DNA of 64,000 bases from a virus, in IMG/VR virus record IMGVR_UViG_3300021964_000036, positions 1-64,000 of that record; one strand, given 5' to 3'. The notes under the pieces were generated by a model. The model did not search any database, was not told the origin of the DNA, and saw only the letters and a program-made list of their open reading frames with translations. The position numbers were made by a program, and so were the translations under genes. This document shows positions 29,401 to 57,290 of this stretch, in pieces; positions within the stretch are counted from its first letter, which is position 1, and each line of letters starts with the position of its first letter.

Positions 29401-31020
29401 ATGGCCGGATTTAACGAAAACCAAGAAGGAAGCCCGATATTCCAAAGAATCAGAGAGTCTGTAAAGTCCCTCAGTAACTTTGGTATGCGTTATGGCGACA
29501 TGGTGATTAAGAATTCCCAGGCAATCGGAACTACGGAGGCTGAATTCATGAAGAGGCAATCTGTCGATGACGAAAGTTTGCTATATTCATTAGGCCGACA
29601 AGATACCACAACAAGGCAGTTTATTGGTTATTACGATAAGGATTATGCAGGTAAGAGGGATTATCTTCGAAAGTTTGCACTTAATCCTGAGATAGAATAC
29701 ATTCTAGATACTGTTTGTGATGAATCTATAACTTTTGACTCCTATAATTTCTTTGCGTATCCAGCTTTCCTGAACCTTACTGATGTTAAAGATAAAGTTA
29801 AGGATAGAATACAAGAGAACTATAAGAAGCTTTACGACATGTTTGGCTTCACTGATGATATTACTGCCTGGCAGTATTTCCGCCAATTGATGGTAGACGG
29901 ATTCTTAGCCTTTGAGATTGTTTATGATGATAAGGGTAAGGGAATAATTGGGTTTAAAGAACTTGATGCTACAACACTAATGCCTTCGGTCGAAAAACAA
30001 CCTGATGGTACTTATTTAAATGTTTGGTATCAATATCCAAAGGACATCAATAAGAGGAGAATGCTTTATGATTCCCAGATTATTTACATATCCTTTGCTA
30101 AAGGTAATACGGTTTCAAGAGTTAGCTACGTTGAGAGACTAATAAGACCTTACAACGTACTAAGAATAATTGAATATACCAGGGTTATTTGGTCTGTAAT
30201 GAATGCTTCATTTAGAATGAAGATGACTGTTCCTATTGGTTCTAGATCTCCCCAAAAATCTATGCAAACCTTGGGCGAGCTTATGAGCATTTATAAGGAG
30301 GACATTAGATTTAATGATGAAAGTGGTGAATTAACAGTAGATGGTAGACCCAAGATACAATTCTATAAGAATTACCTTATGCCTTCTGGTGTCAACGGTA
30401 CACCAACTATAGAGCCCATTAATAATGCTGGTCCTAATTTAAATGATCCGCAGCCGCTTGCTTATTTTTATGATAAACTTGTCCAAGAATCCAAAGTACC
30501 TTTTTCCAGATTCCAAGGTCCTGATGGTGGGTCTATTGGAAACTATTCAAACGGAGCAGAGGGACTTGACAAGGAGGAAATAAGATTTGGTAAGTTCATA
30601 AGTAGACTGAGGTCAATCTTCCAAGATATCCTGGTTAAGCCACTATGGATACAAATGTGTAAGGATTTTCCCGAACTTGAGAAAGATTATCTATTTAAGA
30701 GTCAACTTGGTCTTGAATATGTTTCTGACAATCCTTTCAGAGTCAATCAGGAAATTGAAGCTATGCTTAAGAAAAAGGATCAAATCGATGGAATGTATGG
30801 GTTAATTGACGATTCTGGTGAACCTTTTTTCTCTCTTGCATATCTTATAGAATCTCATTTAGGAATGAATGCTGATGACATTAAAGCTAATAGAGAAGCA
30901 AGAGAAAAAAGGAAAGAGGAGGAAGCTAAGAAAGCGAAAGAAGAAGGTGCTGAGCCGGAAGAAGAAGGTGCTGAGCCGGAAGAAGAGTCTCCAGCAGAAG
31001 AAACACCCCCTCAAGAATAA
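29401..31020 (+). CDS. Portal protein 1 (gp20-like)
   Basis: LRKFALNPEIEYILD, QLMVDG, SYVERLIRPYN.LR, KVPFSRF, EEIRFGKFISRLR. Confidence 0.9.
   Translation: MAGFNENQEGSPIFQRIRESVKSLSNFGMRYGDMVIKNSQAIGTTEAEFMKRQSVDDESLLYSLGRQDTTTRQFIGYYDKDYAGKRDYLRKFALNPEIEYILDTVCDESITFDSYNFFAYPAFLNLTDVKDKVKDRIQENYKKLYDMFGFTDDITAWQYFRQLMVDGFLAFEIVYDDKGKGIIGFKELDATTLMPSVEKQPDGTYLNVWYQYPKDINKRRMLYDSQIIYISFAKGNTVSRVSYVERLIRPYNVLRIIEYTRVIWSVMNASFRMKMTVPIGSRSPQKSMQTLGELMSIYKEDIRFNDESGELTVDGRPKIQFYKNYLMPSGVNGTPTIEPINNAGPNLNDPQPLAYFYDKLVQESKVPFSRFQGPDGGSIGNYSNGAEGLDKEEIRFGKFISRLRSIFQDILVKPLWIQMCKDFPELEKDYLFKSQLGLEYVSDNPFRVNQEIEAMLKKKDQIDGMYGLIDDSGEPFFSLAYLIESHLGMNADDIKANREAREKRKEEEAKKAKEEGAEPEEEGAEPEEESPAEETPPQE
30940..30981 (+). 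repeat. Perfect 21-nt tandem duplication (EEGAEPE x2)
   Basis: gaagaaggtgctgagccggaa twice. Confidence 0.9.
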
Positions 31021-31030
31021 GAAATAGAAG

Positions 31031-32632
31031 ATGGCAGGTTTTTTAGATTACGTACAGGAACGATCCTTTTTAGGCAACCTTTATAAGAATTTGTCTAAGA
31101 TAGGCAGATTTGGGATGGAGTACGAGGATATGGTTATTCGTAACTCTCAAGCTGTTGGTGCTACTGAATCTAATTTTTTTAATGAGCAAGGTACCGGGTT
31201 TACCGAGAATAATGCATTCTATTGGACGCTAGGATATCAGGATACAAAGGTAAGAAAATACATTGCTTACTTTGATAAGGACTATTTAGGAAAAAGAGAC
31301 TTTCTGAGAAAGTTTTCATTAAATGGTGAGATTGATTTTATTCTCGATACACTAACTGATGATGCTATAAACTTTGATGATAAGAACTTTATTGGTTACC
31401 CCTCTCTTGCAAACATAGACATCAAGCCAGAGTTGGTTGATAAGATAGATGATGTTTATCGAAATATTTATATGCTTTTTGGCTTTCAGCAAGGTATAAC
31501 AGCATGGCAGTATTTTAAGCAATTCCTAGTTGATGGCTTCTTAGCCTTTGAGATAGTGTATTCTACTGATGGAAAGAAAATTGTTGGGTTTAAAGAACTT
31601 GATCCCACATCTTTACAACCCGCTACTGAACCACAGCCAAATGGTGAGTTCCAACAAATTTGGATACAATATCCGGAGGACAATAAGATGACTCGAAAAC
31701 TGAAGAGTGAGCAGGTCATTTATATTTCGTATGCAAAGGGAAATACGATTTCTAGAGTAAGCTATGTTGAAAGGTTGATTAGATCCTATAACATTTTAAG
31801 GATCATGGAAAATACCAGGGTTATTTGGAATGTGATGAATGCCTCTTACAGACTTAAGTTTGTTATCCCAGTTGGTTCTCAGTCTCAACAAAAAGCCATG
31901 CAAACTCTCGGGCAGCTAATGTCTGTTTATAAGGAAGAGATGGAAATAAACGATTCATCTGGCGAACTAACTGTAAATGGTAGACCAAAGGTTCAATTCT
32001 ACAAGAATTATCTTTTCCCGGAAAAGGACGGACAATCCCCACAAATAGAGACGTTAGATCCGAATGGCCCTGATTTCAATGTAATGGACAATGTTCTTTA
32101 CTTCTACAATAAATTAAAACAGGATTCCAAAATTCCTTATGCAAGGTTCGCTAATAGAAATGGAACACCTGCTAATTACCAGATAAGCATAGATCAATTA
32201 GAAAGGGATGAAATAAGGTTTGAAAAATTCCTTACCAGACTTAGATCAATTTTCCAAGAGATATTGGTAAAGCCATTGTATATTCAGATGTGTCTTGATC
32301 ACCCGGAGTTAGCTAAGGACAGGAATTTCAAATCCAATCTTGGATTAAGCTACACGAGGGAGAACATGTTTGAAGAATTTATCCAACTTCAGAACTATAC
32401 CAAGAGAGTGCAGTTTATAAACGACCTTGGAGAGATGAAGCAGAAAATAGGGGAAGAGGAAGAATCCTATTTCGACAAAGACTTCTTAATAAAAAGATAC
32501 CTTGGTTTAACCGTGGACGAGTACAAGAAGAACGAAAAATACAAAGAAATCGAATCTAAAATAGCCGAGGAAAAAGCTAAGAGTCAAGAATCTTCAGGTG
32601 GTGACGAAGGTGGTGAGTCATTTACCCTCTAA
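31031..32632 (+). CDS. Portal protein 2 (gp20-like paralogue)
   Basis: Colinear with portal 1; KIPYARF, RDEIRFEKFLTRLR. Confidence 0.9.
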   Translation: MAGFLDYVQERSFLGNLYKNLSKIGRFGMEYEDMVIRNSQAVGATESNFFNEQGTGFTENNAFYWTLGYQDTKVRKYIAYFDKDYLGKRDFLRKFSLNGEIDFILDTLTDDAINFDDKNFIGYPSLANIDIKPELVDKIDDVYRNIYMLFGFQQGITAWQYFKQFLVDGFLAFEIVYSTDGKKIVGFKELDPTSLQPATEPQPNGEFQQIWIQYPEDNKMTRKLKSEQVIYISYAKGNTISRVSYVERLIRSYNILRIMENTRVIWNVMNASYRLKFVIPVGSQSQQKAMQTLGQLMSVYKEEMEINDSSGELTVNGRPKVQFYKNYLFPEKDGQSPQIETLDPNGPDFNVMDNVLYFYNKLKQDSKIPYARFANRNGTPANYQISIDQLERDEIRFEKFLTRLRSIFQEILVKPLYIQMCLDHPELAKDRNFKSNLGLSYTRENMFEEFIQLQNYTKRVQFINDLGEMKQKIGEEEESYFDKDFLIKRYLGLTVDEYKKNEKYKEIESKIAEEKAKSQESSGGDEGGESFTL

Positions 32633-33703: not shown

Positions 33704-35050
33704 ATGAAAAAGGAACTCGAGATTTTTATCCAAATAGAGAGCCAATCTGGAAACGGATCTCAAAAGATAAAGCAGGATTTAATATCTGACAATTTGTCGG
33801 AAAAAATGGAATATCTGTTGGATGTTTGTTTTAATCCATTTGTTACTACAAAGCTTCATAAGATTAATCTAATAGAATATACTCCAGGAAGAAAGTATTC
33901 AAAGGATCCTGATGAATTTTGGAATACGTTTAAGGATTTGGTCGAAGAACTTAAGCAAGCACCAGCAGCTAATGATTCTCTTAGACAAAGGGCGGAAGAT
34001 TTGATAGATCATACTTTTTCGCCGGATACTGAGGAGGATATGGGAATTAGAAAGATGCTTATGAAAGTCCTTACAAAAAGGATGAACATTGGTCTTGGAG
34101 CTAAATTAATTAATAAAGCTGTTGGCAGGGAATTGGTCCCAGATCCTTCGTTAATGCTAGCCACTGATAAACAAGAGGAAATTGAAAAGTGGGATAAAAT
34201 TTATTGTGAAGAGAAATATGATGGGGTTCGTGTTATTGCAATGATGAATCCTGACACCTCATTTTCATTTTACACCCGTGCATTCAACGAACTTGACTCA
34301 TCGAAGCTTAGTAACATTTCTAGGGATTTGTCTGCTATTTCAAAGAAAGCTGGCCACAGTTCTATTTTTTACGATGGAGAGCTAACTGACTTAAATAGAA
34401 AGTCTGTCTCTGGAAAAGTGACACAGATTCTTAAAGGCACAGCCCCAGACGATATAGATGCAAACTTCCTTTTTAATGTGTTTGATTTAGAGGATAGCTC
34501 AACACTTGAAAAGGGTAGGGGCTCTGTCCTTTATACGGAGAGAAGGAAGAGATTGGCTGAAACCTTAGATCTTCTCCCACCAGTATCAAACATAAAACTA
34601 GGCCAGATGTGGGAGGTTGGTTCTATGGAGGATACTTTGGTTATCTACAAGGATATTGTTAACCAGGGTGGTGAGGGTGTTATATGTAAGAACGATCATC
34701 TTTATGAGTGTAAAAGAAGCAAAAGTTGGATAAAGCTTAAAGAGGTTAATGATTGCGATCTCGAGGTTGTTGGCTGGTATCCAGGTGAGGGAAAAAGAGA
34801 AGGTTTTATAGGTGGGTTAGTATGTACTGATAAATCTAAAACCCTCAACGTAAAAATTGGTGCTGGATTTACTGACAAGGATCTAGAAATACTAAGTGCA
34901 AACCCAGATGACCTGGTAGGTAAGATTGCAGCTGTACAGTATAACGTAACAATTACTGACAAGTATGAAAATCGAAGTTTATTCCTTCCAAGATTCATAG
35001 AAATAAGGAACGATAAATCTGACCCAGACGACATGTCTAACTTGTTCTAA
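33704..35050 (+). CDS. lig: ATP-dependent DNA ligase
   Basis: EEKYDGVR, YDGEL, VFD, EGVICK, WIKLK, LFLPRF. Confidence 0.95.
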   Translation: MKKELEIFIQIESQSGNGSQKIKQDLISDNLSEKMEYLLDVCFNPFVTTKLHKINLIEYTPGRKYSKDPDEFWNTFKDLVEELKQAPAANDSLRQRAEDLIDHTFSPDTEEDMGIRKMLMKVLTKRMNIGLGAKLINKAVGRELVPDPSLMLATDKQEEIEKWDKIYCEEKYDGVRVIAMMNPDTSFSFYTRAFNELDSSKLSNISRDLSAISKKAGHSSIFYDGELTDLNRKSVSGKVTQILKGTAPDDIDANFLFNVFDLEDSSTLEKGRGSVLYTERRKRLAETLDLLPPVSNIKLGQMWEVGSMEDTLVIYKDIVNQGGEGVICKNDHLYECKRSKSWIKLKEVNDCDLEVVGWYPGEGKREGFIGGLVCTDKSKTLNVKIGAGFTDKDLEILSANPDDLVGKIAAVQYNVTITDKYENRSLFLPRFIEIRNDKSDPDDMSNLF

Positions 35051-36675: not shown

Positions 36676-37197
36676 ATGAAAAGGCTTATAATTATAGGAA
36701 AGGGCGGGTCTGGTAAGGATCATCTAAGGAAGATTTTGCAAGATAGGGGTTTTAAATACTGTGTTTCCCACACTACCAGACCACCTAGAGATGGAGAGGT
36801 AAACGGTAAAGATTACCATTTCATTTCTGTTGATGCAGCTAATCACGAGTTTATACGTGCTGGAAATTTTTACGAGTATGTAATTTTTAATGGATGGATT
36901 TATTGTACATCCCTTAAAGAATTTCACTCGAGTAATCTTTTTATTATGACACCTTCCGGTCTTCTTTCTATGAAGCCTGCAGACAGGAAAGAATCTATTG
37001 TGTTATACCTGGATATTGATGAGAGAACAAGAAGATCTAGACTATCCAAAAGAAACGATGCTGATAAACTTGAAAGAAGGTTAGAAGCTGATTATAATGA
37101 TTTCAAGGACTTTAAGGATTACGATTTTAGAATCACAGACCCTTTCTTCAAGGACCTGGGTGAATGGGGAAATTTAAATTTTTATCAAAATGATTAA
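36676..37197 (+). CDS. gmk: Guanylate kinase
   Basis: GKGGSGKD, SHTTRPPRDGEVNGKDYHF. Confidence 0.88.
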   Translation: MKRLIIIGKGGSGKDHLRKILQDRGFKYCVSHTTRPPRDGEVNGKDYHFISVDAANHEFIRAGNFYEYVIFNGWIYCTSLKEFHSSNLFIMTPSGLLSMKPADRKESIVLYLDIDERTRRSRLSKRNDADKLERRLEADYNDFKDFKDYDFRITDPFFKDLGEWGNLNFYQND

Positions 37198-38326
37198 CGT
37201 ACTTATAGACGGAAATTACATATTCCACAAAACATTTGGGGTATTTGGTGGATATGGAAACAAAAATCCAATGGATATTCTTGGTACAGAAAGTGAACAA
37301 TCCATGTTTATCCGTAAAATTTCTACGGACCTTACTTCATCTTTAAGATCTATTCCTACTGGGGGTAGGCTAGTCTTTACAGTAGATAGCAGAAGTTGGA
37401 GGAAGGATGTTGAGATCGAGGGTGGAGGATATAAATCCAATAGAGTTAGGGATGATGAGGTTGATTGGAGCGTATTTTTTAACCTCTTAAATTCTTATGG
37501 CGAACATTTAGAAGACATGGGATTTGTATTTTCTAAGGTCAATGGAGCTGAGGGTGATGACCTTCTTTACTTCTGGGCTGATTATTTAAACACAAAGGGA
37601 GAAAATTGCATTATAATATCTGGTGATAAGGATTTACACCAACTTGCCAGGTGGAATAAAAATAACTGGACAATTGTCTGGAATGCTAATTCGAAAAACA
37701 ATATTCTCTCCGTTCCGCGGGGGTGGGAAGATAAGTGGTTAAATAAATCATCGGAGGCTTCTATTTTTGATATGGGGAGCGTAATGGATCCGGATAAGGA
37801 GAAACTTAAGGAATTCAGTAAGAAGGTAGAAGTCAATGAGATTATCCCTAGGGATTTTGTGTTTATAAAAATGTTGGTTGGTGATAAAGGTGATGCTGTC
37901 CCTGGAATTTGGGAAGTCCAAAGTGGATCAAGGACTCAAAGAATTACACCGAAAAAAGCAGAGTCCGTTTTAGAATCCCTACAAACAACTGAATGGGCAA
38001 CTTTGCCATTTTCGGATTTAATAGAAAATAATGATTTCTTAGAATGGACAGCAGGATATTGCCTAAGATTACTCAAGGACATTGATAATAAGGAAAATAG
38101 GGAAAAGGCTGCTAGTAATTTAAAAAGAAACTATCAGCTAATGTGGCTTGATAAAACAGTAATACCGACAGGAGTAATAGAAGGAACTTTGGAGGAATTA
38201 AAGAGAGGAATATCTCTGCCAAAAAAATCTATAACTCTTGATAGGGTAAAAATTATAGAGGGCACCAGCTGGGTAAGCTCACAAGGTGCTCCTAGTCAAT
38301 TTGACCCATTTAAAGATTTTAACTAA
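37190..38326 (+). CDS. 5'-3' exonuclease / T4 RNase H-like flap nuclease
   Basis: LIDGN, SWRK, YKSNR, EGDD, SGDKD, GDKGD. Confidence 0.88.
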   Translation: MINVLIDGNYIFHKTFGVFGGYGNKNPMDILGTESEQSMFIRKISTDLTSSLRSIPTGGRLVFTVDSRSWRKDVEIEGGGYKSNRVRDDEVDWSVFFNLLNSYGEHLEDMGFVFSKVNGAEGDDLLYFWADYLNTKGENCIIISGDKDLHQLARWNKNNWTIVWNANSKNNILSVPRGWEDKWLNKSSEASIFDMGSVMDPDKEKLKEFSKKVEVNEIIPRDFVFIKMLVGDKGDAVPGIWEVQSGSRTQRITPKKAESVLESLQTTEWATLPFSDLIENNDFLEWTAGYCLRLLKDIDNKENREKAASNLKRNYQLMWLDKTVIPTGVIEGTLEELKRGISLPKKSITLDRVKIIEGTSWVSSQGAPSQFDPFKDFN

Positions 38327-39865: not shown

Positions 39866-40747
39866 TTGATGATACTAGGCAGGAATCTTAATCAAATAGG
39901 ATATGTTAATCGAGAATCCTCTTCAACTGCGGAGGGGACTTTTCTTTTTGCACAGGGTGTACTAGATCTCATGAAGGATAATCATGAAAAGGGAATACCC
40001 GTTACCTGCATTGAAATTCCCCAAAATTTTAATAAATTGGATTTTTCTAGTATCGAGGAGGAAAGTAGGGAATCTGATGTTATTTGGTCAACGTTCCAGT
40101 TTATAAAGTCTAATAGACATAGACTATTTTTCTTTCTCCCTAATTACTTCTTCCTTGGAAGTCAAATTGAGGGGGTGGTAGAAGAAAGTAAATCTGTGAT
40201 TACCGAACTCTCTACTTTTTTAGATCAAATTGGTGTAAAAGAAACTTCTATAATTCTTAGGATAGGTAGCGCATACGGAGCTAGGAAAACTACGATGGAA
40301 AGGTTTTGTAAGGAGGTTAAGTCTCTTGGTGATACTGTTGTAGAGAAGCTTTCTGTTTGCAATGACGAGAAACCAAGTCTTTTCTCGGTGACAGATCTTT
40401 TAAGCGGTGTTTTCTATTCTGCTGGCTTGCCAATAGTTTTCAGATTTCTACCTCACCAGTTTAACAGTGGTGGACTTTCCACAAGGGAAGCTTACTTCTT
40501 GGCTGTGTCTACGTGGGTTAAAGGGAAGGTACCTATCTTTATTCATTCTGAATCACGTGAAGTTGACGAAAATGGGGTTTCCCTCTCGCCGGTACCCTCA
40601 GATACATTGTTACATAGAATACCCACTTTTGGGTTAGAAATAGATGTTATCTTAGATATACCAAGTGGTCTTCAGGGATGCTTAGTTTATCTTGCTAATT
40701 ATATTTCTCTCAGACCAATGGTAATCAATAAAGTTGGCAGAAAATAA
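39866..40747 (+). CDS. UV-damage endonuclease (UvsE/UVDE)-like protein, degenerate active site
   Basis: IGSAYG, NDEKPSLFSV.DL, PIVF, HSES pattern; several His/Glu ligands replaced. Confidence 0.6.
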   Translation: MMILGRNLNQIGYVNRESSSTAEGTFLFAQGVLDLMKDNHEKGIPVTCIEIPQNFNKLDFSSIEEESRESDVIWSTFQFIKSNRHRLFFFLPNYFFLGSQIEGVVEESKSVITELSTFLDQIGVKETSIILRIGSAYGARKTTMERFCKEVKSLGDTVVEKLSVCNDEKPSLFSVTDLLSGVFYSAGLPIVFRFLPHQFNSGGLSTREAYFLAVSTWVKGKVPIFIHSESREVDENGVSLSPVPSDTLLHRIPTFGLEIDVILDIPSGLQGCLVYLANYISLRPMVINKVGRK

Positions 40748-40793: not shown

Positions 40794-41588
40794 ATGCCAG
40801 AATTAGCGGAATTAAAGCTTACCTCTGACTATGTAAATGGAATATCGGAGGGAAAGGTATTTACACACATAAGTAAAAACCCAGATCACAAGTGGAAGGA
40901 TGTAGATTTCGGTGGGTGTTTTACAATAAGATCGTTCAGCAGAGGAAAGGAGATAAAATTAGTTCTTTCTAGTACTGAATCAAACAGGTCCGATAATTTG
41001 ATGATGACAATGGGTATGGGTGGTAACTTCCAGTGGGCTTCCAAGGGAGAAAGTATAAAGCACACACACTTATTTTTTCATTGCTTAGATGGTGGTCATT
41101 TAGCTTTTGTAGATATTAGAAGGTTTGGCAAATGGAAATGGGGAGACTGGAATAAGGATAGAGGTCCAGACCCAACAACCGAATACTTTCTATTCTGTAA
41201 TAATATTCTACAGAATCTGCACAAGCGTGCTTTTGATCGTCCCATTTATGAGGTTTTAATGAACCAGCGATATTTTAATGGAATTGGAAATTATCTAAGG
41301 GCTGAGATTTTATTTAGGATACCTGACGAGAATCCTTTTGTTTCTGCACGAGATTACATTGAAAAAAACAAATGGAGGCTTTTTGAACTTTGCAGGAATA
41401 TTCCTATAAAGGTTTATGAAATTGGTGGTGGTACTATAAAGGATTGGAAAAACCCATTTGGGGAAGTATCCTCCGTTTCTGATCTTATGTTGTGTTACGG
41501 AAATCCTTACATGCTAAAGATTGAGGACAGAGGGGGGAGAATGTTCTGGTATGACCCAAAATGGAAAAAAATAGAATATGATAGATAA
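40794..41588 (+). CDS. nei: Fpg/Nei DNA glycosylase, NEIL1-like (no zinc finger)
   Basis: MPE start, RGKE, FVDIRRFG, H2TH NQRYFNGIGNYLRAEIL, zincless-finger DRGGRMFW. Confidence 0.9.
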   Translation: MPELAELKLTSDYVNGISEGKVFTHISKNPDHKWKDVDFGGCFTIRSFSRGKEIKLVLSSTESNRSDNLMMTMGMGGNFQWASKGESIKHTHLFFHCLDGGHLAFVDIRRFGKWKWGDWNKDRGPDPTTEYFLFCNNILQNLHKRAFDRPIYEVLMNQRYFNGIGNYLRAEILFRIPDENPFVSARDYIEKNKWRLFELCRNIPIKVYEIGGGTIKDWKNPFGEVSSVSDLMLCYGNPYMLKIEDRGGRMFWYDPKWKKIEYDR

Positions 41589-42285
41589 AAGAATTTTAGA
41601 GAATTGTCTCTTTTTAGATGTTGAGACTGCAACTGGCTGCCCTGATTTTGAAACCTTGTCCGAGGTGGATCCAAGATTAGCGGAACTTTGGAAAAAGAGG
41701 GCAAAATATTACAGAACTGCATACGAGGATATGAACGGTCTTGCTACTTCTGAAATTTATAAAGAAAAGGCAACCCTGGAGCCGGAATTTTCAAAGGTCG
41801 TTTGTGTGTCCTTTGGTGTTCAGCAGGAGAATGGACAGGTTCGTATGACTTCCTTTTATGGTGAGGACGAGGAAGATATTCTAAATAAGACTGTCAAGGT
41901 CTTTAATAATGCTCTTGTTAAGAACATGAAGCTTGCTGGACATAACATAAAGGGGTTTGATATTCCCTGTCTCGGTAAGAGAATGATTTACAAACTGAGT
42001 TCACCAGTTCTCCCACAAAATCTAGTTATTTGGGACAAAAAGCCATGGGAGATTCCTTATTTGGATACATCGGAGGTTTTCTCATTTGGTAGTTGGTCGC
42101 ATCAAAAGTACCTTTCACTAGATCTTCTTGCTTGCTCTTTAGGAGTTGACTCTCCTAAGGGTGATATGGACGGATCTAAAGTTAGTGAAGCCTATTGGAA
42201 TGATAGGGATTTTGAAAAGATTAAAGAATATTGTGAAAGGGATGTTCAAACTGTAATAGACGTCCTAAACAAAGTAGCAACATAG
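41578..42285 (+). CDS. DnaQ-like 3'-5' exonuclease (PolB-exo-related)
   Basis: FLDVET, GHNIKGFD, YCERD. Confidence 0.85.
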   Translation: MIDKRILENCLFLDVETATGCPDFETLSEVDPRLAELWKKRAKYYRTAYEDMNGLATSEIYKEKATLEPEFSKVVCVSFGVQQENGQVRMTSFYGEDEEDILNKTVKVFNNALVKNMKLAGHNIKGFDIPCLGKRMIYKLSSPVLPQNLVIWDKKPWEIPYLDTSEVFSFGSWSHQKYLSLDLLACSLGVDSPKGDMDGSKVSEAYWNDRDFEKIKEYCERDVQTVIDVLNKVAT

Positions 42286-42350
42286 AATTTCCTTTTTCTA
42301 TTTCCTTCTGGGATTGTTTGGATATATAAAGTCCAAATAATCCCTTTTTT

Positions 42351-47950: not shown

Positions 47951-49672
47951 ATGAAACTAATCAACGAAGCAGAAATCTTCGAAACCTGGTCTCCTATCAT
48001 CGAGCAGAAGGCTGGAATTCAAGATGCTGAGAAAAAAGGATGGTTGAGCAAGTACTGCCACTACCATTCATTAAACGAGTCTGCTGGTGCATATCAGTCA
48101 CTAGCAACTGTAAACGGTATGGGTGCCGTAGCTCCACCCGCATACCCAGGTGGGTATAACTCCACTGGTTCTGCAGTAGGTACGCAAGCAAACGCTGCTT
48201 TCTACAACGCTGCTAACCAAGGTTCAGGAGATAAGTTTCCTTCACTTCTTCCTTTGGCAATTCAGGTTGCTGCGAAGACAGTTGGATTCGATATCGTTCC
48301 TGTAATTCCTATGTCAGGTCCTACTGGCGTACTTTCTTACCTAGATTACGTATACTCAGGTGGTAAAATCAGTCCTGCATCTGCTGGCGCATCTGCTGCT
48401 GAAGCCCTTGCAACTGCACCTTCTATGATCAAGGTAGAATTGACAAACGCTGCAGCAGGATATCCTGGTAACTTTGCAGTAGGTACTACTTACTACATCA
48501 CTAACGCTTCTTCAGCTGGTGCTTACATCACAACTGAATTTGTTGGTCTTTCTAGAATCGATGGTTTCCCAATCTTCAGAATCGTTGGATTAACAGCTGG
48601 TGAAACTGTTTCTGCAGTTCTTGATGGCGGTGCTACTAAAATTGGTACTGCAGTAGATGGAAACCAAGCTGGTACTACAACTGCAAGAGCAGAATTGGTT
48701 AAAGCTCTTGAGGATCACATCCAAGGATTCTCTGGTGCTGGTTTTAACAACGACCAAGACTGGCAAGGACCATTCGTAGATGGTACTAAGACTTACAACC
48801 CAATGCTAAGAGGTGTAGGTGAAAGCACTTACTACCAATCAATGGGTCTATCAACGTTCACTAAGTTCGTTGAAGCTGATACTTTCCAAGTAGCTGCTTC
48901 AGTAACTACTGAACAGATCCAAGACCTTAACAAGCAATTCGGTATCGACGTAATTTCTATGATCGAGAACGCATTGGTTAATGAGGTATCTCAAGCTATT
49001 AACAAGCACATCCTATCTAGAGCATTCGCTCTTGGTTGGTCTAACCACGATGAATTCTTGACTACAGAAGGTCAGAACTTGAACCTAAACCTCGTTATCG
49101 GTGGTACTGCTGGTTCATACACTATTCCTTCTTACGTAGGTAAGTCTGACACTGGTATCTCTATCGCTTCTGTTGCAGGTCCTGCTTCAGGTGGATACGA
49201 GAACTTGTCAACTCTACAGAGAAGACTATTCTCTAGAATTCTAGCTGGTGCTAACGTAGTAGCTAACAGAGGAAGAAGAGGTCCTGCTAACTTCATCGTT
49301 ACTAACGCTAACGTTGCAAGTGCATTGCAAGACATCTCTCAGTTCACTTTTGCACCTTTCTCTAACACACTAACTCAAAACAACGGTACACTTTACCCAG
49401 TAGGTTCGCTTGCAGGTATGACTGTTTATGTTGATCAGAACATGAAGTTCGGTGATAACAGAGTATTAGTTGGTAGAAAAGGTGGTGACGACGAACCAGG
49501 ACTTAAGTTCATGCCTTACATGATGGCTGAGTCTATCCAAACAATCTCTGAGGGTACTATGTCACCTAAGATTGCGGTTAAGTCTCGTTACGCTCTAGTA
49601 GAAGCTGGTTTCCACCCAGAAACTATGTACTTCTGTTTCCACGTGAACGTTCCTGCTGGAGGTCTATCCTAA
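47951..49672 (+). CDS. Major capsid protein (gp23-like)
   Basis: VPVIPMSGPTG, EQIQDL, RGRRGPANF, FMPY, SPKIAVKSRY; strong codon bias. Confidence 0.95.
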   Translation: MKLINEAEIFETWSPIIEQKAGIQDAEKKGWLSKYCHYHSLNESAGAYQSLATVNGMGAVAPPAYPGGYNSTGSAVGTQANAAFYNAANQGSGDKFPSLLPLAIQVAAKTVGFDIVPVIPMSGPTGVLSYLDYVYSGGKISPASAGASAAEALATAPSMIKVELTNAAAGYPGNFAVGTTYYITNASSAGAYITTEFVGLSRIDGFPIFRIVGLTAGETVSAVLDGGATKIGTAVDGNQAGTTTARAELVKALEDHIQGFSGAGFNNDQDWQGPFVDGTKTYNPMLRGVGESTYYQSMGLSTFTKFVEADTFQVAASVTTEQIQDLNKQFGIDVISMIENALVNEVSQAINKHILSRAFALGWSNHDEFLTTEGQNLNLNLVIGGTAGSYTIPSYVGKSDTGISIASVAGPASGGYENLSTLQRRLFSRILAGANVVANRGRRGPANFIVTNANVASALQDISQFTFAPFSNTLTQNNGTLYPVGSLAGMTVYVDQNMKFGDNRVLVGRKGGDDEPGLKFMPYMMAESIQTISEGTMSPKIAVKSRYALVEAGFHPETMYFCFHVNVPAGGLS

Positions 49673-55889: not shown

Positions 55890-57290
55890 ATGTGTGGAAT
55901 AGTAATAACAAAAAACCTAGAAGAGGAAGTAATTGACTCTATCAAACATAGGGGAATCGAAAAAACCGTTATCTCAAAGAATGGGCTTAATCTATGTCAC
56001 CACAGGCTTCCTATTCAAACTGCCGATGGTGATGATTGGAACCAGCCAATAGAGGTATCAGACGGCATCTATTTGCTGTTTAACGGGGAGATTTTTAACT
56101 ATGATACAGATAGGTTTGGTTCTGATATAGAATATCTAACAAATTTATTTTCTAGGTACCGTGGGGGAAGCTTCGAGATGTTTTGCTCACTTTTTGTGCC
56201 AACCATACAGACTTGGGATGGTTTCTGGGCGATTACTATTTATGATTCTTCAACCAATGAGGTAATTGCTTTTACGGATCCTCTTGGCAGAAAGTGTCTT
56301 TATTATAATTCATTAGGAGATATTGCTTCTGAGATAAAGCCTTTGGTATATGATAATTCTCAGATTGATGAATCTTTTATTAGTACCGTAAGAAAATGGG
56401 GATACAACACTGACGATAGAACTGCTTTTGGCGATGTTAAAAGAATACTTCCAAATAATATCTATTCTTTTAACATGGATTCACCGGAGTTTAAGAACGT
56501 TTATAAGACATATTATAAGGGGTTCGATTACCCCATTCAGGAGCTGGTTGGTAAGGGGTATGAAGAACATATGGAGTGGCTTTGGTCCAAAATGTTTGAA
56601 TCTGTAAGAAATAGACTTGTTTCAAAGGATTATCCAATATCTCTTCTTATTTCTGGTGGTTTGGATTCTTCGATAATTGCATCTATACTTAATGAAATGG
56701 GCGCCGATGTTAGGTGGTTCAGTATTGAAAACGGTGAAAAGGAATTTGTAGATATTCTTGCAAATAAACTCGGTAAATCTGTTTCATTCCTTGATTATTC
56801 TATGGATGAATCGATGAATGAAGAAATTTATAAAAAATGGAACGAGTCTCCTATAGATCTTGGATCTGTTATACCACAATACCATCTTTTTGATGCAGTT
56901 AAGAGATTTGGAGGATATCGAATAGTACTTTCTGGTGATGGTGCTGATGAATTGTTTGGTGGATATAAAAGAATTCATGAATACGATTCACAAAAGTCAG
57001 ATGTTTTTGACGAGCTCTCATATTATCACCTACCTAGATTGGACAAGATGTCGATGGCACACACTCTGGAGTTAAGAAGTCCTTTTTTGAATCTAGATCT
57101 TGTAAGGTTTGCTTTACATCTTCCTTTAGAATGGAGAAAGGATAAGAAAATCCTTAAAGACACATTTGCTCCATTACTTCCTGATGAGATAGTAAATCGT
57201 AAAAAAGCACCGCTCAAGAATCCTAAAATCAAGGAGGATAAAATTGCTTACCGATATAAGGCGGTAGATCTTTTCTTGGGGAATAGATAA
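55890..57290 (+). CDS. asnB: Asparagine synthetase B-like glutamine amidotransferase
   Basis: MCGI, NGEIFNY, SGGLDSS, SGDGADELFGGY, LELRSPFL. Confidence 0.9.
   Translation: MCGIVITKNLEEEVIDSIKHRGIEKTVISKNGLNLCHHRLPIQTADGDDWNQPIEVSDGIYLLFNGEIFNYDTDRFGSDIEYLTNLFSRYRGGSFEMFCSLFVPTIQTWDGFWAITIYDSSTNEVIAFTDPLGRKCLYYNSLGDIASEIKPLVYDNSQIDESFISTVRKWGYNTDDRTAFGDVKRILPNNIYSFNMDSPEFKNVYKTYYKGFDYPIQELVGKGYEEHMEWLWSKMFESVRNRLVSKDYPISLLISGGLDSSIIASILNEMGADVRWFSIENGEKEFVDILANKLGKSVSFLDYSMDESMNEEIYKKWNESPIDLGSVIPQYHLFDAVKRFGGYRIVLSGDGADELFGGYKRIHEYDSQKSDVFDELSYYHLPRLDKMSMAHTLELRSPFLNLDLVRFALHLPLEWRKDKKILKDTFAPLLPDEIVNRKKAPLKNPKIKEDKIAYRYKAVDLFLGNR

Follow-up and report, generated by a model that had tools for sequence, protein, structure and literature searches.

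The stretch analyzed here (the window, 64,000 nt) belongs to an IMG/VR record of 82,491 bp that is about 29% complete. On its plus strand, at positions 40794 to 41588, lies a single ORF with an ATG start that is predicted to code for a NEIL1-type (zincless-finger) DNA glycosylase/AP lyase of the Fpg/Nei superfamily (264 aa). In humans, NEIL1 acts in base-excision repair and has been studied extensively (structures 1TDH, 4NRV, 5ITQ-5ITY, 6LWA-6LWR, and 8FTJ). A HMMER search against PDB chains matched the ORF to 15 distinct human NEIL1 sequences at E values of 1.3e-45 to 1.9e-43, far above the chance level, and several of them align in a single stretch, with residues 1 to 254 of the query against residues 1 to 282 of NEIL1. 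The next-best chain is a MutM/Fpg (1ee8, E = 1.9e-11), and the E values for the other subfamilies are 0.049 (NEIL3), 0.29 (Escherichia coli endonuclease VIII, Nei), and 0.34 (NEIL2). Most of the named animal NEIL1 proteins are 35 to 40% identical to the phage protein across 96 to 99% of its length. The Pfam model Fapy_DNA_glyco recognizes it above the cutoff (E = 1.3e-13), while the NCBIfam models score far under theirs: 73.5 versus 203.3 bits for the fpg model TIGR00577 (E = 1.7e-20), 64 versus 212 bits for the fpg model NF002211, and 29.3 versus 252 bits for the nei model NF007763. The best-scoring models of this collection are fpg equivalogs. As a biochemical type the protein is not new, being a recognizable member of the Fpg/Nei superfamily.

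The first-pass annotation had described this protein as NEIL1-type rather than Fpg/Nei from a series of phage strings (RGKEIKLVLS, AFVDIRRFGKW, RAFDRPIYEVLMNQRYFNGIGNYLRAEILFR, LFELCRNIPIKVYEIGGG, and CYGNPYMLKIEDRGGRMFWY) set beside strings of human NEIL1 (RGKELRLILS, CFVDIRRFGRW, KAFDRPICEALLDQRFFNGIGNYLRAEILYR, LLELCHSVP, and CYGMPGMSSLQDRHGRTIWF). All of the former are present in the translation of the ORF, and all of the latter appear in the HMMER alignments to the NEIL1 chains. The assignment itself is borne out by the distance between the E values for NEIL1 and MutM, by the NCBIfam scores, and by the phylogeny described below. The lack of a Cys4 finger reported at the same time was found as well, since the last 60 residues hold one cysteine (C234) and no CxxC...CxxC pattern.

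The residues on which catalysis and DNA binding depend in NEIL1 can be followed along the alignment, from which the human residue numbers used here were counted. The protein begins with MPE, a proline directly after the initiator methionine followed by a glutamate, and the codons of Pro2 and Glu3 (positions 40797 to 40802, plus strand) align to the N-terminal nucleophile and acid of the human enzyme (P2/E3). Lys52, within the RGKE motif (codon at 40947 to 40949, plus strand), corresponds to Lys54 of human NEIL1. Neither E3 nor K52 varies among 111 family members, and conservation of P2 is 90% or more. The void-filling triad M75/R109/F111 aligns to human M81/R118/F120, with each residue invariant or at least 90% conserved in the same set, as are N166 and R249 (at least 90%), which align to human N176 and R277. 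The core of the H2TH DNA-binding motif (residues 158 to 172, QRYFNGIGNYLRAEI; positions 41265 to 41309, plus strand) is near-identical to that of human NEIL1, and the stretch NGIGNYLRAEIL is the same as the human motif except for the flanking residues. Conservation within the family is 90% or higher at ten positions of this motif (Q158, F161, N162, G163, G165, N166, Y167, L168, R169, and I172), and the Pfam H2TH model matches residues 124 to 176 below its cutoff (E = 1.4e-5; 25.4 versus 34.7 bits). The zincless finger, placed by the model and the alignment at residues 235 to 253 (positions 41496 to 41552, plus strand), is a predicted beta-hairpin with strands at 241 to 244 and 250 to 253 that carries Arg249 and lacks the four cysteines; the model Neil1-DNA_bind (PF09292) matches residues 232 to 254, also under its cutoff (E = 0.0018; 18.4 versus 25 bits). 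The protein ends 11 residues past this finger, so that the disordered C-terminal tail of animal NEIL1, a protein-interaction accessory outside the catalytic core, is absent; the animal proteins listed are 463 to 909 aa long.

The AlphaFold model of the glycosylase is confident (pLDDT, 94.4; pTM, 0.89), with only the last few residues low (about 45). When it was searched against the PDB with Foldseek, the matches listed (ranks 1 to 50) were human NEIL1 throughout, with TMq values of 0.76 to 0.87 and identities of 37 to 40%. The phage protein departs from its eukaryotic counterparts at two places within the core. An animal-type insert of 18 to 28 alignment columns is missing after its residue 197, and the loop G211-P221 (GGGTIKDWKNP; positions 41424 to 41456, plus strand), which aligns to the lesion-capping loop of human NEIL1 (residues 240 to 252), is not NEIL1-like but takes the Fpg-like GGxxLKDW form, with G213 aligned to K/R242 and I215 to Y244. 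These substitutions at the capping positions mean that the substrate range may differ from that of NEIL1. The motif GGxxLKD[WFY] was found in 88 of 123 short forms, a lower bound because the strict regular expression skips near variants such as SGGSLHQW in Poribacteria, in 6 of 8 Fpg/Nei outgroups, and in none of 69 rows of the eukaryotic clade; the CxxC...CxxC pattern occurs in 4 of the 8 outgroups versus none of the 123 short forms. The loop sets the short forms of phages and bacteria apart as a subgroup of their own and not as crown NEIL1. The loop character also agrees with a descent of eukaryotic NEIL1 from short forms.

The glycosylase gene is embedded in a conserved module that runs ligase-FEN-UvdE-like-glycosylase-exonuclease. 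An ATP-dependent DNA ligase (33704 to 35050; PF01068, 1e-16; PF14743, 3e-5) and a 5'-3' exonuclease/FEN resembling T4 RNase H (37190 to 38326; PF02739, 1.7e-10), both syntenic in related phages, are followed by a UvdE-like gene (39866 to 40747; PF03851, 1e-12) directly upstream of the glycosylase, all on the plus strand. The UvdE-like protein matches the PDB entry 3tc3 (E = 3e-13) with substitutions at several conserved motif positions of UV damage endonuclease (H->L, H->R, E->C, D->R, and H->P); hence, the module cannot be read as just a collection of canonical repair enzymes. Downstream, the ORF of a 3'-5' exonuclease (PolB-exo-like, RNase H fold; 41578 to 42285, plus strand; PF10108, 1e-13; PF13482, 6.2e-9) has an 11-nt overlap with the glycosylase stop, and cotranscription of the two genes is probable. 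A terminator-like hairpin with a 14-pair stem and a T-run, recognized by its match to the consensus, lies 3' of the exonuclease gene (42310 to 42344, plus strand) and has the longest stem of the 14 terminator-like sites in the region (7.8 +/- 3.0 expected). The same gene order, with orthologues 85% identical, was found in 19 of the 49 related loci examined, and the exonuclease adjoins the glycosylase in 18 of these 19 syntenic loci, the remaining one (L033) stopping within the glycosylase gene. This conservation speaks for selection on the glycosylase. Neither a 3'-phosphatase (PNK3P, PF08645) nor a family-B polymerase (PF00136) was found in the 82-kb record, an absence that is uninformative since the record is about 29% complete.

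The record carries a T4-type terminase, a tail sheath, two gp20 portals, a prohead protease, and a gp23-type major capsid protein (47951 to 49672, plus strand; PF07068, 9.6e-41), in keeping with the initial description of the genome as that of a bacteriophage. The best tblastn matches of the capsid protein are an uncultured phage of 462 kb (45.9%) and the Prevotella Lak megaphages (about 44%), and by its gene content the genome can be classed as that of a T4-like huge phage with a capsid nearest to the Lak megaphages. Of the 24 sequencing runs listed, 10 contain half or more of the sampled words; 4 of these are possible sources of the record and the other 6 are five estuary metagenomes and one marine metagenome, which gives estuaries and the sea as the habitat of the phage. 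No RNA run containing the stretch was among those 24, which speaks neither for nor against expression. The host is probably a member of the Bacteroidota, judging from the kinship of the capsid to Lak phages and from two associations with MAG bins, which may reflect misbinning. The sequence TAGTTTTG, which we take to resemble the -7 element of Bacteroidota, sits 14 nt upstream of the glycosylase ATG. As a clue to the host, the promoter element TANNTTTG was rejected because it is not enriched in the window (68 occurrences versus 72.6 +/- 8.5 expected), and sigma-70-like sites likewise show no enrichment (32 versus 38.0 +/- 5.4 expected).

Homologues of the phage glycosylase are numerous (1,683 at E <= 1e-5), and 149 clusters at 50% identity match it at E <= 1e-30. 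They make up dozens of deep lineages of short forms at about 30 to 50% identity to the query, spread over several lineages of large phages and over the chromosomes of Poribacteria and Neomarinimicrobiota, where the gene is found at syntenic positions beside housekeeping genes. Only 17 records matched among 50,697 searched GenBank phages, all under 60% identity (24.6 to 28.5%). Some of the relatives are annotated by JGI as "endonuclease VIII-like 1." The phage protein is one member of a large and deeply diverged family of short forms, not a lone orthologue. Among freely accessible papers, searched without their supplements, none was found that deals with enzymes of the NEIL1 type in phages, Poribacteria, or Amoebozoa, and an earlier report may exist.

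In the maximum likelihood (ML) tree, a NEIL1-type clade of 102 rows (support 100/99) on a stem of 0.67 substitutions per site stands apart from eight Fpg/Nei outgroups, namely, E. coli MutM and Nei, three phage Fpg proteins, and three bacterial MAG homologues, and the phage protein does not nest within the bacterial MutM and Nei proteins. The short-form family and eukaryotic NEIL1 are one clade within Fpg/Nei. This comparison leaves out MvNei1 (the Nei1 of mimivirus), plant and fungal Fpg, NEIL2, NEIL3, and actinobacterial Nei (NEIL2 and NEIL3 were compared by E value only); 10 of 150 representatives shorter than 235 aa were removed before the first tree, and the 110 rows are our own selection from 200. 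The label "PHAGE" of rows P0167, P0168, P0184, and P0203 and the label "CELL" of P0267 rest on their grouping in the tree alone. The eukaryotes form a single clade (100/97) in which 11 of the 29 rows labeled as eukaryotic are metagenomic proteins without a name, and the named ones include three Amoebozoa, a euglenid, a choanoflagellate, and a ctenophore. The "near-orthologue of metazoan NEIL1" of the first-pass annotation is indeed of the NEIL1 type, but it is not singular, being accompanied by 149 clusters, and NEIL1 is not only metazoan.

Within the NEIL1-type clade, the ML tree, whose careful version had a bootstrap that was not fully settled (correlation, 0.948), places the eukaryotes inside the short forms behind three branches (98/81, 80/90, and 83/86). 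Holding the 73 noneukaryotic rows together cost 18.9 log-likelihood units against the careful tree, and this arrangement was not rejected by the AU test (p-AU, 0.348); the same constraint was 48 units higher in log-likelihood than the quick free tree (p-AU, 0.861). The constrained group was chosen after a tree had been seen, which formally weakens the test. The nesting of eukaryotic NEIL1 within phage diversity, recovered also with FastTree and the quick IQ-TREE run, was dropped as a firm claim, given the p-AU of 0.348 for the sister relationship.

Could the protein be an ordinary bacterial-type Fpg (MutM) or Nei taken from the host, with a superficial likeness to NEIL1? E. coli MutM (b3635) and Nei (b0714) share with it the superfamily, the N-terminal PE dyad, the H2TH motif, and the two-domain fold, the GGxxLKD[FWY] loop is common to short forms and MutM, the top NCBIfam models are those of fpg, and cultured phages do carry Fpg proteins (gp292 of Bacillus phage G, that of Bacillus phage SP-10, and mutM of Acinetobacter phage MD-2021a). 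However, these phage-borne glycosylases of the superfamily are only 24.6 to 26.7% identical to ours and group with E. coli MutM in the outgroup, the bacterial enzymes have the Cys4 finger that the phage protein lacks, and the branch of 0.67 separates them. Considering also the fpg and nei scores far under their cutoffs and E values that fall from NEIL1 to MutM and then to Nei, this origin is refuted for the outgroups used, and we give it next to no credence. A capture of true NEIL1 from a eukaryote or a eukaryotic giant virus, recently imported into phages, would account for the 37 to 40% identity to animal NEIL1, and the AU test permits trees with all short forms on one side of a branch, which allows for more than one position of the root. 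Against this, the diversity of the short forms is too great for a recent event, they are found in several unrelated large-phage contexts as well as at the syntenic chromosomal sites in the two bacterial phyla, and the animal-specific insert is absent. The Fpg-like loop, so frequent in short forms and outgroups and not seen in any eukaryotic row, would need to have been reinvented as an ancestral motif if the family were of eukaryotic origin; the motif shared with Fpg argues only against this eukaryote-to-phage direction. As for a giant virus as the source, the Fpg homologues of giant viruses in BFVD are only 15 to 21% identical to the phage protein. The PDB chains 3A42, 3A45, and 3VK7, which we take to be MvNei1, match it at an E of about 1.6e-4 over residues 89 to 177 only, more weakly than bacterial MutM. 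MvNei1 has been described as a "viral NEIL1 ortholog" (Imamura et al. 2009; Bandaru et al. 2007; both cited in PMC3188539) and is, according to PMC3188539, a virus-encoded Fpg/Nei enzyme with a zincless finger. It resembles the phage protein in both of these latter respects, but it stems from a virus of a eukaryote. We regard such a capture as very improbable.

Two further explanations concern what the protein does. It might act not mainly in the repair of phage DNA but on host DNA, on modified bases, or in counterdefense or takeover, e.g., by excising bases from the DNA of the host or of competitors while that of the phage is protected. Huge phages are known for many host manipulation genes, glycosyltransferases that could point to DNA or surface modification are encoded in the window, the UvdE-like neighbor looks noncanonical, and a capping loop unlike that of human NEIL1 leaves the specificity open. 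However, a ligase, a FEN, and an exonuclease share the module with the gene, all of the repair-type catalytic and DNA-binding residues are conserved, and this analysis gave no sign of modified phage DNA. Family members are also chromosomal in free-living bacteria, beside housekeeping genes, which suits a housekeeping repair role. We consider a nonrepair function unlikely. That the protein is a catalytically dead, lesion-binding pseudoenzyme, like its apparently degenerate UvdE-like neighbor with its lost conserved residues, seems extremely improbable, since none of P2, E3, K52, M75, R109, F111, N166, and R249 is missing, each of them shows 90% or higher conservation in the 111 members, and the model is confident up to the last few residues.

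Most likely, the ORF provides a large T4-like phage related to the Lak phages with a minimal but active bifunctional DNA glycosylase/AP lyase of the NEIL1 type, within a short-form family that shares a clade with eukaryotic NEIL1. The chemistry of Fpg, Nei, and NEIL1 is well established and can be applied to the phage enzyme by analogy. After removal of the initiator methionine, the amine of Pro2 would attack C1' of an oxidized base (thymine glycol, 5-hydroxyuracil, hydantoins, and Fapy lesions are candidate substrates), with the assistance of Glu3 and Lys52. Met75, Arg109, and Phe111 would occupy the gap left by the flipped-out base, and the H2TH motif and Arg249 of the zincless finger would grip the phosphate backbone. 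A beta,delta-elimination would then produce a one-nucleotide gap with phosphates at its 3' and 5' ends. The blocked 3' end might be cleared by the overlapping 3'-5' exonuclease, the gap filled by a phage polymerase, and the nick sealed by the nearby ligase, in what would amount to a base-excision repair of oxidative damage belonging to the phage itself.

In PMC3188539, NEIL1 is regarded as a subfamily of metazoans ("MeNeil1") whose viral relative is mimivirus Nei, and a review suggests that H2TH glycosylases reached eukaryotes with mitochondria (PMC8307549). Our results show that, outside the eukaryotes, NEIL1 has its closest kin in a family of minimal enzymes (about 260 aa) that is large, varied, and as yet undescribed, with members in huge phages from the environment and in several marine phyla of bacteria. 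The bearing of the phage gene on an origin of NEIL1 by phage or bacterial transfer, proposed in the first-pass annotation, gains from the ML tree that nests eukaryotes in the short forms, but the transfer is not demonstrated, as the sister relationship was not rejected. We put forward, tentatively and at somewhat less than even chances, that eukaryotic NEIL1 derives from the short forms of phages and bacteria. In this scenario, a zincless glycosylase with the Fpg-like loop, in circulation among large phages and marine bacteria (Poribacteria and Neomarinimicrobiota), would have entered an early eukaryote prior to the split of Amoebozoa, euglenids, choanoflagellates, and animals, and would have gained its NEIL1-specific lesion loop, a helical insert, and its C-terminal tail later. 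With the short-form family at hand, the origin of NEIL1 becomes directly testable by rooted phylogeny and by indel and loop characters. If this scenario is true, the ancestor of an enzyme of human DNA repair would have its living reservoir in huge phages. The family also provides small, tail-less natural NEIL1 cores for comparison in structural and enzymological work, e.g., on what the NEIL1-specific lesion loop adds, and its presence suggests that oxidative damage is mended in large phages by a base-excision repair of their own.

A 264-aa glycosylase of the NEIL1 type is encoded on the + strand at 40794-41588, by an ORF with an ATG start. Every motif quoted for it in the first-pass annotation is present in the translation, and the human NEIL1 strings given there are correct, since all appear in the HMMER alignments to human NEIL1 chains. 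Searched with HMMER against every chain sequence in the PDB, the protein matched human NEIL1 in 15 distinct sequences (E values of 1.3e-45 to 1.9e-43), several of them as one unbroken stretch aligning residues 1-254 of the query with NEIL1 1-282. The next-best match was the MutM chain 1ee8 (1.9e-11), and NEIL3 (0.049), E. coli endonuclease VIII (0.29), and NEIL2 (0.34) were weaker. Pfam matched the Fpg/Nei N-terminal domain (1.3e-13), with the H2TH and Neil1-DNA_bind matches both sub-threshold, and the NCBIfam equivalog models fpg (73.5 versus 203.3 bits) and nei (29.3 versus 252) scored far under their cutoffs. The PHROGs match for the protein of 40794-41585 is the function-unknown family phrog_21295 (E value of 3.7e-16); as this was the only one, current phage annotation would give the protein no name.

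The AlphaFold2 model, built from a 111-sequence alignment, has a mean pLDDT of 94.4 and a pTM of 0.89, and the Foldseek PDB matches listed, ranks 1 to 50, are all human NEIL1 (TMq of 0.76 to 0.87, 37 to 40% identity). Counting human residues off the HMMER alignment, the catalytic pair P2/E3 corresponds to P2/E3 of human NEIL1, K52 to K54, M75 to M81, R109 to R118, F111 to F120, N166 to N176, Y235 to Y263, and R249 to R277. E3, K52, and Y235 are invariant across the 111 members, while P2, M75, R109, F111, N166, and R249 are each at least 90% conserved. The C-terminal hairpin is formed in the model by strands 241-244 and 250-253, and a search of it found no Cys4 pattern, hence a zincless finger. 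The protein differs from human NEIL1 in having no C-terminal tail and from animal NEIL1 in lacking an insert of 18 to 28 alignment columns after residue 197, and the human lesion-capping loop residues K/R242 and Y244 are replaced by G213 and I215 at the aligned positions.

The gene lies in a repair module on the + strand that starts with a ligase (33704-35050) and includes a FEN gene (37190-38326), a UvdE-like gene immediately 5' of the glycosylase (39866-40747; PF03851, 1e-12; PDB 3tc3, 3e-13), and a 3'-5' exonuclease (41578-42285) 3' of it. The glycosylase stop and the exonuclease start share an 11-nt overlap, and a strong terminator-like hairpin (42310-42344, +) lies 3' of the exonuclease. 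Of 49 related loci examined, 19 (L002-L017, L033, L036, and L043) keep the module order; in these the glycosylase is 60 to 94% and the capsid 81 to 97% identical to those of the window. In the syntenic phages the UvdE-like gene is conserved at just 47 to 71% identity, and its product carries H to L, H to R, E to C, D to R, and H to P substitutions relative to 3tc3 at conserved motif positions of UV damage endonucleases, so it may be catalytically inactive. Because all catalytic and DNA-binding residues are conserved, the glycosylase would be expected to act as a bifunctional glycosylase/beta,delta-lyase on oxidized bases of phage DNA; the translationally coupled exonuclease would then clear the 3'-blocked end ahead of gap filling and ligation.

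The window comes from an IMG/VR virus record of 82,491 bp with an estimated completeness of 29%. It codes for a T4-type large terminase, tail sheath, prohead protease, and gp23-type capsid protein, together with two tandem full-length gp20-type portal paralogs (29401-31020 and 31031-32632, both +; PF07230, 1.8e-58 and 1.2e-63); a single portal gene is the norm for tailed phages. Two family 2 glycosyltransferases and a glutamine-dependent asparagine synthase homolog stand among the structural genes (1741-4225 and 55890-57290, +), and a tRNA gene search found none. Among 50,697 GenBank phage records, the capsid has its best matches in an uncultured 462-kb phage (45.9%) and in the Prevotella Lak megaphages (about 44%); a match at the nucleotide level was not found. 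A 70-kb contig in a Saprospirales MAG bin (L043) carries an 84% identical, fully syntenic glycosylase copy, and a contig in a Flavobacteriaceae bin (L044) carries a relative at 50%. L043 and the window represent one phage lineage, sharing the module order and having capsid proteases that are 95% identical; L044 clusters with L020 and L022, two viral loci, and has neighbors that match PHROGs. The two contigs are thus of phage origin although binned with bacteria, which may be a clue to the host or may reflect mis-binning; together with the Lak kinship they suggest a Bacteroidota host. Of the 24 sequencing runs listed, 10 contain half or more of the words sampled from the window. Four of these 10 are possibly the source of the window DNA, and the others are metagenomes, five from estuaries and one marine; among the runs listed, the exact DNA occurs mostly in estuary metagenomes.

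A word-indexed search returned 1,683 homologs (E ≤ 1e-5), the best 120 of which are at least 51% identical, 157 to 290 aa long, and all of metagenomic origin; some of these 120 carry the JGI label "endonuclease VIII-like 1." Searching 1.84 billion cluster representatives exhaustively gave 1,700, 413, and 149 matches with E values of up to 1e-3, 1e-10, and 1e-30, respectively. The gene is present at 35 IMG/VR loci, and at 17 viral loci outside the syntenic group it lies in unrelated neighborhoods; five long records of this kind include four with a gp23-type capsid gene and three with a T4-type terminase. The 17 matching GenBank phage records reach just 24.6 to 28.5% identity, and in BFVD the best viral structures belong to Bacillus phage G gp292 and to Fpg homologs from giant viruses (15 to 21% identity). 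A non-exhaustive scan of prokaryotes (one genome per species, two peptide patterns) found 14 loci, 11 of them within the NEIL1-type clade by FastTree: two phage-like contigs, seven labeled Candidatus Poribacteria, one labeled Neomarinimicrobiota, and one "uncultured bacterium" grouping with Poribacteria. Poribacteria MAG loci L050 (4741-7873) and L052 (4720-7930) have a common RlmL-glycosylase-YkuD (L,D-transpeptidase) neighborhood surrounded by sulfatases and oxidoreductases, and the Neomarinimicrobiota gene (L053) neighbors UbiE, glutaredoxin, an outer membrane beta-barrel, and rhodopsin. Given these surroundings, the copies in both groups are cellular and chromosomal.

Among the longer relatives are named NEIL1 proteins (vertebrates, molluscs, sea urchin, tardigrade, coral, copepod) and proteins of the ctenophore Mnemiopsis, the choanoflagellate Mylnosiga, the euglenid Ploeotia, an MMETSP protist, and three Amoebozoa (Planoprotostelium, Mastigella, and Pyxidicula); NEIL1 thus extends beyond Metazoa. 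In P0356 (838 aa) and P0361 (546 aa), two proteins of metagenomic origin that group with Mastigella and Pyxidicula (100/98 in the careful tree described below), the NEIL1-type domain is fused to a uracil-DNA glycosylase domain (PF03167).

NEIL1-type rows formed one clade in all three trees (FastTree with 200 rows, and a quick and a careful IQ-TREE on the same 110 rows), with 100/99 support and a stem of 0.67 in the careful tree (LG+C20+F+G4 by PMSF, 267 columns, lnL -47112). The outgroups, namely MutM and Nei of E. coli, Fpg from three phages, and homologs from three bacterial MAGs, fall outside it, so the window protein stands apart from the MutM/Nei outgroups used. The nearest outgroup (99/84) consists of L054 and L055. 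These Bacteroidota Fpg/Nei homologs from Flavobacteriales and Cryomorphaceae MAGs (6001-6801 in each) are 29 to 30% identical to the window protein; no CxxC pairs were found in the alignment of L054, which may be another zincless bacterial lineage. The first-pass reading of a phage near-ortholog of metazoan NEIL1 holds as to type and clade, but the protein is one member of a large family of short, tail-less phage and bacterial forms, and NEIL1 is also non-metazoan.

In the careful tree, the window protein falls with its syntenic relatives in a phage clade (100/99), Poribacteria and Neomarinimicrobiota group together (99/99), and all eukaryotic-clade rows form a single clade (100/97); with outgroup rooting the eukaryotes are nested behind three short-form branches (98/81, 80/90, and 83/86). 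However, the outgroups are long-branched, which makes the root unreliable, and an AU test holding the 73 non-eukaryotic rows together did not reject this constraint (lnL 18.9 lower, P = 0.348); against the weaker quick tree it was even favored. The tree thus fits more than one direction of transfer, and the origin of NEIL1 through phages or bacteria raised in the first-pass annotation, whose observation was confirmed, is one possible reading. In the loop before the zincless finger, 88 of the 123 short-form rows have the motif GG-x-x-[LIVMF]-x-[DNSTQHE]-[WFY], as do six of eight outgroups, including E. coli MutM (GGTTLKDF), and none of the 69 eukaryotic-clade rows has it. The short forms thus retain the Fpg-like loop as the ancestral state, and the loop of the eukaryotes is derived, a pattern that argues against phage capture from eukaryotes and is compatible with a sister relationship or with descent of eukaryotic NEIL1 from phage or bacterial forms. 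Given the Fpg-like loop, the substrate range may also differ from that of human NEIL1.

Full-text literature searches turned up no report of NEIL1-type enzymes in phages or bacteria. In published work, "MeNeil1" is a metazoan subfamily, with mimivirus enzymes cited as zincless-finger relatives (PMC3188539), and a mitochondrial route is proposed for H2TH glycosylases (PMC8307549). The window protein adds a phage member to the known NEIL1 type, within a large, undescribed short-form family, and its possible evolutionary meaning is of interest.
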